This document shows, piece after piece, positions 1,063 to 8,290 of a stretch of 64,000 bases of DNA. The stretch covers positions 6,858-70,857 of the forward strand of contig PLLJ01000038.1 of assembly GCA_003140935.1 (NCBI GenBank), in the 5' to 3' direction. Every line of letters starts with the position of its first letter. Position 1 is the stretch's first letter. Both the position numbers and the translations under genes were made by a program. Source of the stretch: Candidatus Omnitrophota bacterium (GTDB lineage Bacteria; Omnitrophota; Omnitrophia; Omnitrophales; Aquincolibacteriaceae). Under the pieces are notes generated by a model. That model did not search any database. It was not told the origin of the DNA and saw only the letters and a program-made list of their open reading frames with translations.

Positions 1063-1667
1063 GGTTTTTGAACCTCCGTGCGGGTTGTGATCACTGCGTC
1101 GACAATACCATAATTTTTTGCCTCATCGGCGGACATGAAATAATCCCTGTCGGTGTCCTTCTCGATCTTTTCGAGCGCTTGTCCGGTGTGACGGACAAGG
1201 ATCTGATTCAGTTGTTCTTTAAGTTTTAAGATCTCTCTGGCCTGAATATGGATATCCGAAGCCGTCCCCTGCGTGCCGCCCCAGGGCTGGTGGATCATCA
1301 CGCGGGAATTCGGCAAAGAGTACCGTTTTCCCTTGGTGCCGGCCGCGAGAAGCAGGGAGCCCATGCTTGCGGCCTGCCCAAGACAGTAGGTCGCGACGTC
1401 GCATTTCACGAAGCGCATGGTGTCGTAGATCGCAAGACCTGCGGTCACGGACCCGCCGGGGGAATTGATGTAGATGTTGATATCCTTGCCCGGCTCTTCC
1501 ATGTTGAGGAAAAGGATCTGAGCGATAATAAGATTGGCGATCACGTCATCGATCGGCGTTCCGATAAAAACAATGCGGTCTTTGAGAAGCCGGGAGTAGA
1601 TATCATACGCCCGCTCCCCTTTTCCGGTCGTTTCAATCACCATCGGGACCAAATAGCTCATATTCAA
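1059..1667 (-). CDS. clpP: ATP-dependent Clp protease proteolytic subunit ClpP
   Basis: 202-aa ORF with canonical ClpP sequence (..[24 protein letters not shown].., [17 protein letters not shown].., [16 protein letters not shown].., MIHQPWGG). The Ser-His-Asp triad context is conserved. Confidence 0.95.
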
Positions 1668-3120: not shown

Positions 3121-3194
3121 TGGAGCGAGTGGAGGGAATCGAACCCTCGTAGCTGCCTTGGCAAGGCAGAGCATTACCACTATGCTACACTCGC
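3121..3194 (-). tRNA. tRNA-Gly (anticodon GCC)
   Basis: The reverse complement folds as a cloverleaf: GCGAGTG acceptor, TAGCATAGTGGTAATGC D-arm, anticodon stem CTGCC/GGCAG with loop TTGCCAA (GCC), T-arm GAGGGTTCGATTCCCTC, and a CCA end encoded. Confidence 0.85.
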
Positions 3195-3394
3195 TTGTTA
3201 GATGAGACTTTACGACTTCCGGGAAGGCCGTATTCTAGTCCCAACACTTATCAATTTCAACAAAGTTGAAATTGGGGCAATCCTTGTCAACCATTTGAAA
3301 AACAATAATGGACAAGGATAGAAGCGCGTCCTACCTTTGTCAATTAAAGTACCGCCGAACCACAGCTTCTGTGCGGTGATAGAACCCCGAAAAA

Positions 3395-3497
3395 AGTGCG
3401 GCCGGAGGGACTTGGCGCCTCCGCTTCGCTACGGTCGGCCACCCGCGCTATAAATATGACCCCTGTCATATTTATGAACAGCGCTCCCTTCAAGCCC
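3395..3497 (-). repeat. tRNA-Leu 3'-half-derived element fused to a long hairpin (tRNA-like remnant / possible structured RNA or terminator)
   Basis: The first ~20 nt (agtgcggccggagggacttg) match the T-arm/acceptor 3' end of the neighbouring tRNA-Leu gene exactly, then diverge into a ~16-bp near-perfect hairpin (ataaatatgac-cccT-gtcatatttat). On the minus strand it ends ...CGGCCGCAC followed by TTTTTT. There is no D-arm or anticodon arm, so it is not a functional tRNA. Confidence 0.5.
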
Positions 3498-3574
3498 TCT
3501 ATACTGCCGAATATAATATCGTAGAAGACCTTCCTTAGGTCTTCACGATAGCGTACTTTTTCATTGAGAAAAAG

Positions 3575-3656
3575 TGCGGCCGGAGGGACTTGAACCCCCA
3601 CACCTTACGGTACAGGATCCTAAGTCCTGCGCGTCTGCCAATTCCGCCACGACCGC
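3575..3656 (-). tRNA. tRNA-Leu (anticodon TAG), class II with long variable arm
   Basis: Reverse complement: GCGGTCG acceptor, D-arm TGGCGGAATTGGCAGACGC, anticodon stem CAGGA/TCCTG with loop CTTAGGA (TAG), variable arm ACCGTAAGGTGT, T-arm GGGGGTTCAAGTCCCTC, 3' acceptor CGGCCGC. No CCA is encoded. Confidence 0.85.
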
Positions 3657-3680
3657 AAACCTAGTAATAGTAACAAGAAA

Positions 3681-3795
3681 AGTGCGCCCTGAAGGACTTG
3701 GCTCCTTCCCCGCCACAATCCGGCGGGTTCGGTAGGCCACCCGCCCCGCTATACAATGCTCCTTGAGTCGCATCGGCGGGGCTCCCTTCAAGTCC
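3681..3795 (-). repeat. tRNA-Lys 3'-half-derived element fused to a GC-rich structured region (second member of the same element family)
   Basis: The first ~20 nt (agtgcgccctgaaggacttg) match the T-arm/acceptor end of the adjacent tRNA-Lys exactly. The rest parallels element 1 (ggccacccgcNctataNaat ... gctcccttcaagNcc shared). The minus-strand sequence contains mutually exclusive stems GGCGGGT/ACCCGCC and CCCGCC/GGCGGG. Confidence 0.5.
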
Positions 3796-3817
3796 TTTTC
3801 AACATATTGAAAAAAAG

Positions 3818-3890
3818 TGCGCCCTGAAGGACTTGAACCTTCGACCCAGTGATTAAGAGTCACTTGCTCTACCAACTGAGCTAAGGGCGC
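3818..3890 (-). tRNA. tRNA-Lys (anticodon CTT)
   Basis: Reverse complement GCGCCCTTAGCTCAGTTGGTAGAGCAAGTGACTCTTAATCACTGGGTCGAAGGTTCAAGTCCTTCAGGGCGCA: canonical cloverleaf, anticodon loop CTCTTAA (CTT), U33 and A37 present. Confidence 0.85.
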
Positions 3891-4030
3891 AAAAACTCAA
3901 AGATCAAACCAAAAGTAACGGGTATTGGCGGCCATCAAAAGCCACCAAAGAGCGGGTATTCTACTCAAGAAAGCCTTATTTTACAAGAAAGGGATTCTTG
4001 ATTTTTCTGGAAAAGGAGGATAGAAAACCG

Positions 4031-7132: not shown

Positions 7133-8290
7133 ATGAACTCAAAATCCATTCCCAGGATCGACCACATCTATCTGGATAGAAATGCCGCGCGTTCGCCTCT
7201 TGCCAAGCGCATCCTGCGGACCCTCCGCGGCATTCCGGTCACGCTCGTCACAAACAAGAACGCCTTTCTCAAAAAGATCGAAAAGATACCGCTTACCACC
7301 GGCAAGAGAAACCTCTGGCTCACGAACTTCAAAGGGGCATTCCTCAAACCCTGTCCCGCCACGGGGACGGATTACCTTTGCTGCGGCTACAGGATCCTCA
7401 ACGCGCAAACCCACTGCCCTCTCGACTGCACCTATTGCATCCTGCAGAATTATTTGAATGTCCCGTTGATCACGGTCTACGTCAATACCGGGAATATCGC
7501 CCGGGAGATCGACACCCTGATCGCAAGTGAGCCCCGGCGTCTTTTCCGGATGGGCACGGGAGAACTGACGGACAGCCTCGCACTGGACCGGCTGACGCGT
7601 TTGAACGAAACCCTTATCCGCCATGTCCTCGGCAAGAAAATGATCCTGGAGATCAAGACCAAGACCGCTCAGATCGATCATTTGCCGGAGATCCCGAAAA
7701 AGAACGTTCTCATCTCCTGGTCGCTGAATCCCGACGCATTCATCCGGACGGAGGAACACAGGACCGTGTCTTTGGAGGTGCGTTTGAAAGCCGCCCGCAA
7801 GGCCCTCAAAAAAGGTTACCGCCTTGGGTTTCATTTCGATCCTCTGCTCATGCTGCCGGGGTGGAAGAAACAGTACGCGGAGCTTTTAGAAAAGTTGACC
7901 TCGGCTGTCCCGGAAAAAGAAGTGATGTGGATCAGTCTCGGCAGCTTGCGCTATCCGTCTTCACTCAAAAAGGTCATCGAGGAACGCTTCCCGAAAACAA
8001 AGATCACGACGGCGGAATTTGTCAAAGGCCTTGATGGGAAAATGCGCTATTTCCGGCCGGAACGGGTCGGGCTTTACCGGCACGTTTACAGCGAGGTCCG
8101 GAAGCGCTGGAAAGATGTCTTCGTTTATTTCTGCATGGAGAACAGCACCGTTTGGCGAGAGGTGACGGGAGATGCCCCAGAAGGCAATGATCATCTGGAT
8201 TACTTGTTCCACGAGAGCCTGGTAAGACGCTTCCCCGATCTCAAGCTTCCCGCTCCCGGCCTTTCTCTTTACCGGCAAACCGCTTCCTGA
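7133..8290 (+). CDS. Spore-photoproduct-lyase-like radical SAM protein (SplB family DNA repair enzyme)
   Basis: 385-aa ORF with the radical SAM motif CPLDCTYCILQ and an SplB-family-like N-terminal layout (short leader before the CxxxCxxC); ATG at 7133. Confidence 0.75.
   Translation: MNSKSIPRIDHIYLDRNAARSPLAKRILRTLRGIPVTLVTNKNAFLKKIEKIPLTTGKRNLWLTNFKGAFLKPCPATGTDYLCCGYRILNAQTHCPLDCTYCILQNYLNVPLITVYVNTGNIAREIDTLIASEPRRLFRMGTGELTDSLALDRLTRLNETLIRHVLGKKMILEIKTKTAQIDHLPEIPKKNVLISWSLNPDAFIRTEEHRTVSLEVRLKAARKALKKGYRLGFHFDPLLMLPGWKKQYAELLEKLTSAVPEKEVMWISLGSLRYPSSLKKVIEERFPKTKITTAEFVKGLDGKMRYFRPERVGLYRHVYSEVRKRWKDVFVYFCMENSTVWREVTGDAPEGNDHLDYLFHESLVRRFPDLKLPAPGLSLYRQTAS

Follow-up and report, generated by a model that had tools for sequence, protein, structure and literature searches.

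tRNA genes and repeated elements at the trigger factor locus

The window, i.e., the entire 64,000-nucleotide stretch of Candidatus Omnitrophota DNA that was analyzed, contains genes for tRNA-Gly(GCC), tRNA-Leu(TAG), and tRNA-Lys(CTT) in the local context of genes for trigger factor (tig), ClpP (clpP), and an M48 peptidase. ARAGORN and Rfam agreed on all three tRNAs of this cluster, as named in the original prediction, and placed all of them on the minus strand. Along this strand, one repeated element, the el2 module, follows tRNA-Lys and a second one, el1, follows tRNA-Leu; an element is absent after tRNA-Gly(GCC), where it is present in the relatives L007, L010, L023, and L027. No recombinase or integrase was found in the local context of el1 and el2. 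The features of the locus, in the direction of the tRNA strand, are the following (P1 to P3 are the helices of the fold described below):

3958..3986, minus strand: promoter-like site upstream of tRNA-Lys (consensus match only)
3817..3890, minus strand: tRNA-Lys(CTT), complete, partner of el2 (ARAGORN; Rfam tRNA, 74.2 bits)
3796..3816, minus strand: el2 linker, short A/U hairpin UUUUUUUCAAUAUGUUGAAAA that abuts the tRNA-Lys discriminator (sequence, MFE fold)
3787..3799, minus strand: el2 P1 5' arm AAAAGGACUUGAA, antisense to tRNA-Lys nt 54-64 (inverted repeat I6, P1 covariation)
3743..3782, minus strand: el2 P2 hairpin, type B, apical GCGAC...GGAGC (fold, junction invariance)
3704..3742, minus strand: el2 junction CGGGUGGCCUACC and long-form P3, CCCGCC...GGCGGG (covariation)
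3683..3700, minus strand: el2 3' copy of tRNA-Lys nt 56-73, identical to 3818-3835 (repeat comparison)
3574..3656, minus strand: tRNA-Leu(TAG), complete, partner of el1 (ARAGORN and Rfam)
3553..3576, minus strand: H1 hairpin including the tRNA-Leu discriminator and T-tract, CACUUUUUC-UCAAU-GAAAAAGUAC (inverted repeat I8)
3517..3551, minus strand: H2 hairpin, 12 bp with one bulged U and a UAAGGAA loop, AUCGUGAAGACC...GGUCUUC-U-ACGAU (compensatory changes versus L001)
3489..3499, minus strand: el1 P1 5' arm GAGGGCUUGAA, antisense to the tRNA-Leu T-loop and T-stem 3' strand, one bulge
3445..3484, minus strand: el1 P2 hairpin, type A, AUGAC-N4-GUCAU apex, 4-nt bulge on the 5' side (inverted repeat I4)
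3415..3444, minus strand: el1 junction CGGGUGGCCGACC, short P3 (CCGUAGC-GAA-GCGG), and GGAGGCGC
3391..3414, minus strand: el1 3' copy of tRNA-Leu nt 56-73 (3397-3414) with the repeated CTTTTT trailer
3121..3194, minus strand: tRNA-Gly(GCC) (ARAGORN and Rfam)

The elements are connected to their tRNAs by two exact repeats, one of 24 nt (3391-3414 = 3569-3592; tRNA-Leu nt 56-73 plus CTTTTT) and one of 23 nt (3678-3700 = 3813-3835; tRNA-Lys nt 56-73 plus CTTTT), for which we estimate a joint chance of about 1e-8 within 1.1 kb. The original prediction had placed these copies upstream of the tRNAs, which holds in the plus-strand view only; since the tRNAs are encoded on the minus strand, the elements actually lie downstream on the tRNA strand. 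Common to el1 and el2 are, in this order, CTTGAAGGGAGC, a 38-nt hairpin, GGGTGGCC, a second hairpin, and GCCAAGTCC, and the claim of a shared element was borne out by the covariance model R1, which gave the two window copies 108.5 and 89.4 bits. A feature missed at first reading is that the 5' end of the element is complementary to the T-loop and the T-stem 3' strand of the same tRNA; the earlier observation on duplicated tRNA ends was real and understated. In el2, the invariant junction strand GAAGGGAG precedes P2, the long form of P3 represents the U...A variant of a covarying G:C pair (family counts: G:C 89, U:A 14), and the copy is laid out as the P1 3' arm (56-65), followed by the single-stranded acceptor 3' strand and the discriminator. 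The tRNA-Lys(CTT) gene has no encoded CCA. With respect to the linker after tRNA-Leu, covarying variants of H1 were seen in relatives, and H2 is a positioned motif in 36 of 199 tRNA trailers.

ARAGORN and the Rfam tRNA model called only the five real tRNAs, and none at 3391-3516 or 3683-3816 (E up to 10), while the likeness of the elements to tRNA ends is exact. A pseudo-tRNA, as proposed originally, or an intron-bearing, split, or permuted tRNA would account for the 18 nt of tRNA sequence at the 3' end, but the elements are devoid of a D arm and an anticodon arm, escape both tRNA search tools, and follow a tRNA that is already complete or carries its own 3' end, which refutes this explanation and leaves it with a negligible probability. 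The split tRNA genes of Nanoarchaeum likewise comprise a separate tRNA 3' part preceded by a partner-pairing sequence; unlike there, the upstream tRNA of Omnitrophota is already complete, and a second 3' part is therefore redundant. On the tRNA strand, Rfam 15 yielded no family match to the elements, even at E values up to 10, and the Rfam ribozyme models did not match them either. The only overlap, on the opposite strand at 3395-3477, is with the KDPG-aldolase RNA model, at 15 bits and thus far below its gathering score (54.6; E = 6.3). Literature searches on RNAs linked to tRNAs in Omnitrophota, on motifs of tRNA trailers, and on miniature elements that target tRNAs yielded nothing relevant, and to our knowledge no RNA family or mobile element has been described that places exact sense and antisense copies of the T-arm and acceptor 3' strand of the neighboring tRNA around an invariant core at dozens of tRNAs.

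A family of tRNA-matched three-way junctions

We are highly confident that el1 and el2 are members of an undescribed family of folded tRNA-trailer elements. A family, for which the original prediction had suggested a search, indeed exists, and pattern scans and a covariance model recovered about 165 copies from Candidatus Omnitrophota MAGs and metagenomes. The copies are about 115 nt long and reside in tRNA 3' trailers, on the tRNA strand, 2 to 257 nt past the tRNA. So far, the family has been found in Omnitrophota only; five matches in genomes from other lineages (L003, L006, L012, L014, and L019) were judged to be due to chance because they lacked a tRNA and the hairpins, two of them being located in apparent coding sequence. 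A same-strand tRNA is present no more than 700 nt upstream of 143 copies, covering 37 anticodons, and the other 22 copies are mostly situated at contig edges or after tRNA fragments, a tmRNA-like 3' end (one copy), or a tRNA that appears to carry a group I intron. All copies with enough flank are placed behind tRNA-type genes, and wherever the sequence suffices, a complete tRNA, or at least its own 3' end, is found upstream of the element.

Every copy has the fold of a three-way junction with the order P1 5' arm, GAAGGGAG, P2, CGGGUGGCC(G/U)ACC, P3, GGCGC, and tRNA copy, the last two being joined without a gap. P2 is a hairpin of 38 to 44 nt that occurs in two types, P3 is a hairpin with G.A mismatches, and both covary. 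Paired cells amount to 94.5% and 92.6% versus 83% and 78% in shuffled controls and 31 to 48% with slid partners, double changes occur in 13 of the 20 modelled pairs, and the covariation score was matched by no shuffle. The strands GAAGGGAG and CGGGUGGCC(G/U)ACC are nearly invariant (about 150 of the 165 copies), and the rare variant AAG[A/U]GAG occurs together with CG[A]GUGG in four of four cases, a co-occurrence in the sequences that suggests a tertiary contact. In 30 of 38 copies, the tRNA strand gives the more stable P2 (G:U pairs, 23 versus 8). Counting G:U versus A.C over the 20 modelled pairs (71 versus 76) revealed no strand bias and was uninformative for strand assignment; the A.C cases are found mostly at the outer P1 pairs and at one P2 base pair.

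The arms of P1 correspond to the neighboring tRNA. The 3' arm and the adjacent 8-nt tail are a copy of its nt 56-73, without any mismatch in 116 of 121 pairs, that ends at the discriminator even when CCA follows only one of the two copies (8 and 8 cases); the tail itself, which is unpaired beyond P1, represents the acceptor 3' strand and the discriminator (66-73). The 5' arm is antisense to nt 56/57-65, i.e., T-loop and T-stem, with pairing at 8.05 of 9 positions for the cognate versus 6.52 of 9 for non-cognate tRNAs, and the P1 pairs facing T-loop nt 57 and 59/60 change among two to four pair types. The direct repeat has a modal length of exactly 18 nt, and the sequence between the repeats is conserved and non-coding.

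Further pairings were tried and rejected. The conserved GGGUGGCC could form a tRNA-like minihelix with the 3' tail that is perfect in el1 but does not covary, and the energies of this duplex are -8.2 versus -8.0 kcal/mol for tRNAs with versus without an element (p = 0.67). Pairing of the tail with the sequence upstream of the 5' arm reaches 3.5 of 8 positions versus 3.06 of 8 in controls, and a T-stem-like 5' strand (GGAGG) within the element does not track the tRNA when read from the alignment. A 4-bp GUGC:GCAC tail match is limited to the Lys copies.

Occupancy and insertion footprints

Genomes with trigger factors of 80 to 100% identity differ freely in the occupancy of the Lys-Leu-Gly-tig locus, and any host function must therefore be dispensable. 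The relative L002 has no element at this locus, and L001, whose trigger factor is 96% identical, exhibits a clean empty site at tRNA-Leu and a type of element at tRNA-Lys that differs from that of the window. In addition, the elements form tandem arrays of two to four units, and 97 to 100% identical cores are found behind different tRNAs (Val, Gly, Gln, Ser, and Leu), in some cases within contigs of a single metagenome, which together look like selfish spread or gene conversion. The compact subfamily matches only about 8 bp of P1 at T-loop positions common to many tRNAs, and retargeting would therefore need few changes.

All of these traits, as well as the mostly perfect copies with their 18-nt mode, speak for mobile DNA of a non-autonomous kind, whose insertion at the T-loop or 3' end of tRNA genes would be carried out by a recombinase encoded elsewhere in the genome. 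The same holds for the directly repeated tRNA 3' part, since elements that insert into tRNA genes classically leave such a footprint. The junction would then be a cis-acting site on a folded single strand, as in integron attC or CTX-phage attP, and the 18-nt copy would have arisen as a target duplication of fixed length, anchored on the universal GTTC of the T-loop, or would be an element-borne part that restores the tRNA. However, no recombinase is located beside any copy examined, the left terminal sequence is not conserved, the linkers differ despite identical cores, and an arm that fails to fit its own tRNA, the expected trace of a fresh jump, was not found in any copy. The divergence between orthologous elements roughly keeps pace with that of the flanks, which indicates vertical descent, with saturated linkers and an 18-nt copy that stays perfect. 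With its twenty invariant nucleotides and its tertiary covariation, the junction resembles a functional RNA core more than it does known recombination sites. All 120 viral loci that matched the 16-base pattern proved to be chance matches without a single copy of the family, so that a viral origin was rejected as well. Taken together, mobile DNA of this kind is the main rival of the RNA reading given below, conceivable and rather unlikely.

Integrative elements with tyrosine integrases target tRNA genes at the T-loop and leave attL/attR footprints. The Omnitrophota element resembles these footprints in the succession of an intact tRNA and a direct partial copy from the T-loop to the 3' end, in the possibility of precise loss, and in tandem accretion. 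It differs in that only 100 to 250 nt lie between the repeats, with neither integrase nor cargo, in that one core serves 37 anticodons and a tmRNA-like 3' end, and in an extra antisense arm that covaries with the tRNA. The original prediction had considered remnants of integrase-mediated insertion. In such a remnant, attL would correspond to the intact tRNA and attR to the partial copy, and the cargo of an ordinary island would since have been lost. The partial 3' copy in direct orientation downstream of the intact tRNA remains valid, and a true 3.3-kb island does exist in L268, where duplicated 3' halves of tRNA-His enclose only a methyltransferase and a GT87 glycosyltransferase. But a series of independent deletions would not have spared one conserved, covarying core of 95 nt at 37 anticodons, no integrase was found in the local context of el1 and el2 or in the L268 island, and the identity ends at the discriminator and not at an arbitrary att boundary. 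The interpretation as island remnants is hence close to refuted.

Integron attC and CTX-phage attP have in common with the element inverted target-like segments about 90 nt apart that pair into a target-like duplex, a structure that is kept while the sequence varies, and the formation of arrays. In contrast to attC, the Omnitrophota element lacks the RYYYAAC/GTTRRRY core, and its 3' arm starts with GCGCC(A/G)A instead of GTT; in contrast to both, its junction is long and invariant and its arms are specific to each tRNA. An intI or Xer context was not seen in the flanks examined. From a MITE, the element is distinguished by inverted arms that change with the neighboring tRNA, the absence of conserved terminal inverted repeats, a repeat of 18 nt or longer that is always tRNA 56-73, and, for all copies with enough flank, a place behind tRNA-type genes instead of at many unrelated sites. 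The modal 18-nt repeat is compatible with casposon- or CRISPR-repeat-like integration (Cas1 type, long fixed duplication). Readings as bridge RNA, omega RNA, or retron were dropped because the element has no neighboring gene for a recombinase, TnpB/IscB, or reverse transcriptase and because both of its segments, sense and antisense, address one set of target positions and not adjacent ones.

Transcription signals and a candidate role as RNA

The promoter-like site at 3958..3986 is the likely start of a Lys-el2-Leu-el1 transcript, as judged from its consensus match. No promoter-like or terminator-like site was detected by the consensus scan between a tRNA and its element, and el2 is flanked by two same-strand tRNAs. 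Together with the covarying helices and the nearly invariant junction, these observations make a small structured RNA that is co-transcribed with the tRNAs the best supported of the origins proposed originally, and the elements are presumably transcribed and processed.

Each unit had also been regarded as an intrinsic terminator, i.e., as a T-arm/acceptor copy that acts as the hairpin before a T-tract and was spread by template switching. In the window, tRNA-Leu, tRNA-Lys, and both elements do end with GCAC followed by 4 to 7 T, and GUGGCCG of el1 can pair with CGGCCGC just before the T-tract in a third fold. Yet this ending is not family-wide, and a T run of four or more occurs after only 51 of 120 element copies versus 55 of 120 tRNAs, so that T-tracts are not enriched after the element copy relative to the tRNA. 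The terminator scan was blank at el1 and el2, and 8 or 9 unpaired nt separate P1 from the T-tract, whereas the G+C-rich hairpin of an intrinsic terminator ends 0 to 2 nt before its U-tract. For the final 8 nt ahead of the T-tract, the element offers no partner with conserved pairing, the above-mentioned junction:tail duplex being neither covarying nor energetically better in element-bearing tRNAs. Moreover, another tRNA of the same presumed operon is located 26 nt past el2. Termination does not generalize as an explanation and is very improbable.

In our view, the best reading, with a probability of roughly one-half, is a dispensable, co-transcribed trailer RNA that is cognate to its own tRNA and may swap strands with it. 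The element would be transcribed together with its tRNA and act as RNA. Its antisense arm could pair with either copy of nt 56-65, fitting the real tRNA 2 to 3 bp better because GAA faces U54-U55-C56, and the acceptor 5' strand of the tRNA could pair with either copy of 66-72; since arm and acceptor each have two possible partners, tRNA and element may constitute a two-state strand-swap pair. In state 1, a normal tRNA would be released at copy 1 and a closed three-way-junction RNA left over, and in state 2, a single long RNA would be closed by copy 2. The strand swap is suggested by sequence logic and MFE folds; in folds of the full-length tRNA plus element, the acceptor 5' strand pairs with the second copy (z-scores, -4.1 and -5.5). 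Co-transcriptional folding would favor the normal tRNA. The invariant junction is probably bound by a putative factor of tRNA 3'-end handling. The direct repeat of 18 to 25 nt permits precise loss that leaves the tRNA gene intact, and copies appear to exchange core sequence by recombination; the element would therefore be a dispensable, semi-selfish resident of tRNA operons.

A bolder proposal, which we regard as unlikely, is that the element, as a new functional RNA class or as a mobile element with an RNA structure, finds its tRNA by base pairing. Here, the antisense arm would read the T-loop/T-stem of one tRNA, the sense copy would replace its 3' strand, and the junction would be a core for catalysis or protein recruitment that acts on the 3' end of the tRNA by cleavage, strand exchange, or guided insertion beside any tRNA gene.

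An action of the trailer element as RNA would point to a so far unrecognized step in the quality control of tRNAs or the handling of their 3' ends, in a phylum about which little is known. As mobile DNA, the element would amount to a small insertion system able to settle behind any tRNA gene without damage, and its addressing segment of only 8 to 12 nt would be relevant to guided recombination. In both cases, RNA biologists gain a three-way junction that is compact and well defined and has about 165 natural variants to test.

Functional bacterial small RNAs from the 3' external transcribed spacer of tRNAs, released by tRNA processing, are exemplified by 3'ETS-leuZ of E. coli. The trailer elements share with it the derivation from a tRNA trailer, but RNAs of the 3'ETS-leuZ type are short, unstructured sponges of a single operon, whereas the Omnitrophota family is multi-copy, structured, and tRNA-matched. 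The mascRNA at the MALAT1 3' end (RF01684) is comparable as an RNA module with borrowed tRNA features at the end of a longer transcript; it is a full cloverleaf mimic, in contrast to the Omnitrophota element, which copies only nt 56-73 of its neighbor and pairs them with an antisense arm. The weak RF01684 match in the window (16.8 bits, E = 1.9) falls on tRNA-Leu, outside the elements.

Folded elements behind tRNA-Lys and tRNA-Leu

ARAGORN and Rfam agree on all three tRNAs of the cluster, two of which are directly followed by a folded element (el2 and el1). The features of the locus, in window coordinates, are as follows.

Upstream of the tRNAs: M48 peptidase
3890-3817, minus strand: tRNA-Lys(CTT)
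3816-3683, minus strand: el2, directly behind tRNA-Lys
3656-3574, minus strand: tRNA-Leu(TAG)
3573-3391, minus strand: el1, directly behind tRNA-Leu
3517-3576, minus strand: two-hairpin module H1+H2 (also at 3906-3975 of the related locus L001)
3280-3319: inverted repeat 2 of the interval from el1 to tRNA-Gly
3252-3274: inverted repeat 1 of the same interval, CAATTTCAAC/GTTGAAATTG
3194-3121, minus strand: tRNA-Gly(GCC)
3084-1741, minus strand: trigger factor, downstream of the tRNAs
Downstream of the tRNAs, minus strand: ClpP

The duplication of tRNA 3' ends described in the original prediction is exact over 24 nt for el1, which closes with a repeat of tRNA-Leu (3391-3414 and 3569-3592), and over 23 nt for el2, which closes with one of tRNA-Lys (3678-3700 and 3813-3835). 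The proposed shared element was likewise recovered, both copies consisting of CUUGAAGGGAGC, a 38-nt hairpin, GGGUGGCC, a second hairpin, and GCCAAGUCC. The possibility that they are ordinary tRNAs was checked, and neither was called as one; comparison with Rfam families gave no call even at E values of up to 10. A feature absent from the prediction is complementarity between an element's 5' end and its own tRNA, at the T-loop and the 3' strand of the T-stem; both elements show it (inverted repeat I6). The suggestion that the units are intrinsic terminators did not hold up, as they failed the membership test. Membership tests also failed for remnants of integrase-mediated insertion and for pseudo-tRNAs.

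Promoter-like sites at the tRNA cluster lie only upstream of tRNA-Lys and of tRNA-Gly, and the site scan of the window found no promoter-like or terminator-like site between each tRNA and its following sequence. The interval from el1 to tRNA-Gly (3232-3343, minus strand) contains a pair of promoter-like sites and two inverted repeats that are perfect or nearly so; the repeat at 3252-3274, together with its TAGAAT box, is kept upstream of tRNA-Gly in two related loci (L010 and L023). Homologues of its trigger factor assign the window to Candidatus Omnitrophota. An open reading frame at 7133-8290 (plus strand) matches the spore photoproduct lyase and radical SAM families; to our knowledge, spore formation is not known in this phylum.

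Distribution and turnover of the family

Checked as possible dispersed repeats, el1 and el2 were found by a pattern scan and a covariance model to belong to a multicopy family that extends beyond the window. When one genome per species was scanned for the exact pattern, 30 loci matched, 25 of which were judged real; five matches in other phyla, without a tRNA and without the hairpins, were rejected. All taxon-named loci among the 25 are from Omnitrophota/Omnitrophica MAGs, the others being "uncultured bacterium" MAGs. The covariance model, trained on 28 copies, yielded 45 matches within the pattern-scan loci, 131 across 120 metagenome loci, none in 120 viral loci, and nothing beyond el1 and el2 in the 64-kb window. 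A same-strand tRNA lies at most 700 nt upstream of 143 of the 165 full-length copies (median distance, 48 nt), and these partners have 37 anticodons among them and cover almost every amino acid. For most of the other 22 copies, the contig ends too soon to show an upstream tRNA; those remaining come after tRNA fragments, after a tmRNA-like 3' end (L252), or after a tRNA apparently bearing a group I intron (L257). We conclude with high confidence that this is a real, previously undescribed family of structured elements cognate to their tRNAs; a literature search returned nothing relevant to it, and no Rfam family matched.

At L252 (7000-7205), the element copies the apparent tmRNA 3' end (GGGGTTCAACTCCCCTCAGGTCCACCA) including its encoded CCA. 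In the tRNA of L257, about 330 nt upstream of the element (1447-1565, minus strand), visual inspection picked out strings resembling P7 and P3; ARAGORN did not call this tRNA.

Among genomes with trigger factors 80 to 100% identical to that of the window, many of the possible combinations of occupancy behind tRNA-Lys, tRNA-Leu, and tRNA-Gly occur: L001 (96% identical) has a different element type behind tRNA-Lys and a clean empty site behind tRNA-Leu, and L002 (88% identical) has no element at the locus. Tandem arrays comprise two to four units. Cores that are 97 to 100% identical stand behind tRNAs for Val, Gly, Gln, Ser, and Leu, and some of these cores lie on contigs from one metagenome; in each, the arms fit the local tRNA, and the linkers are unlike. 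Since the elements are dispensable and their copies show these dynamics, the serious rival explanation is a non-autonomous mobile element, which we consider less likely than a role at the RNA level. A copy with a mismatched arm, the expected trace of a fresh jump, was not seen among the copies. The hybrid at L267 (181-302, minus strand), whose 5' arm fits the upstream tRNA-Leu(CAA) and whose 3' copy fits another tRNA (...CCCCCCCTCGCTAC), suggests a rearrangement via recombination between two element copies; orthologous copies otherwise diverge at about the rate of their flanks.

At L268 (2735-6330), a 3.3-kb segment with methyltransferase and GT87 glycosyltransferase genes is flanked by direct repeats, each comprising the tRNA-His 3' half (49 nt, from the anticodon loop) and the downstream element (162 nt, 96% identical). 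It resembles a small island that has inserted at this anticodon loop; no integrase was found within the available stretch.

Core structure and tRNA-cognate arms

Three helices around a junction (P1, formed by the tRNA-cognate arms, and the hairpins P2 and P3) are supported by RNAalifold and pair counts. Paired cells amounted to 92.6% in the independent metagenome set versus 78.3% in shuffles and 31 to 48% with partners slid by one to three columns, and the observed covariation score was above that of all 500 shuffles. The junction strands AAGGGAG and CGGGUGGCC(G/U)ACC are near-invariant (about 150 of 165 copies), and the rare AAG[A/U]GAG variant is accompanied by CG[A]GUGG in 4/4 cases, a co-occurrence that suggests a putative tertiary contact. 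The G:C pair at the base of P3 is replaced by U:A in 14/105 copies, including el2. Stability of the P2 hairpin favors the tRNA strand in 30/38 copies, with 23 versus 8 G:U pairs; counts of G:U versus A.C over 20 modelled pairs are uninformative on strand.

The block of identity with the tRNA begins at C56 in 130/143 cases and ends at the discriminator, including 16 cases with CCA after just one of the two copies; the 18-nt copy of nucleotides 56-73 is perfect in 116/121 pairs. The 5' arm, the complement of the T-loop and T-stem 3' strand, pairs at 8.05 of 9 positions with the cognate tRNA versus 6.52 of 9 with non-cognate tRNAs. Elements of tRNA-Gly have AAUCGAAGGGAG...GCGCCGAUUCC versus ACUUGAAGGGAG...GCGCCAAGUCC in those of tRNA-Leu and tRNA-Lys, so that T-loop positions 57, 59, and 60 covary too. 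Judged from sequence, GAA at the end of the 5' arm would lie opposite U54-U55-C56 in the real tRNA and opposite GC-C in the element's own copy, and the arm is thus predicted to match the tRNA better by 2 to 3 bp than its own partner. Within the element, no conserved pairing partner exists for the 8-nt tail (66-73), and the tail's identity with the tRNA is kept although the linkers of orthologous copies are unalignable. Some process holds the tail identical, candidates being selection, repeated re-insertion, and gene conversion.

Possible role of the elements and the adjoining hairpins

A role at the RNA level is favored, with a probability of about one-half, because of the junction conservation, the putative tertiary covariation, the sense-strand bias of P2, and the position inside predicted tRNA transcription units. 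By sequence logic, the antisense arm could pair with either copy of nucleotides 56-65 and the acceptor 5' strand of the tRNA with either copy of 66-72. In MFE folds of tRNA-Lys with el2 and tRNA-Leu with el1, the second copy closes the whole RNA (z-scores of -4.1 and -5.5, respectively), and we infer that a tRNA and its element might swap strands. The RNA-level role and mobility are not mutually exclusive. The closest parallels are with attL/attR footprints at tRNA genes, with recombination sites that are folded single strands, and with tRNA-like 3' modules; each of these has one feature in common with the family and lacks the others.

In the long forms, el1 among them, the stretch from the tRNA to the core contains two further hairpins. 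In the first, H1, the discriminator and trailer pair with a complementary sequence downstream. The second, H2, has a 12-bp stem in which one U is bulged, an AAGGA-type loop, and CGU/ACG flanks that are conserved. It begins about 26 nt past the tRNA end in 36 of 199 tRNAs of related loci versus 3 in upstream controls and also occurs without the three-way-junction element, e.g., behind tRNA-Gly in L001. H1/H2 appears as a module separate from the core element, at a fixed offset behind tRNAs.
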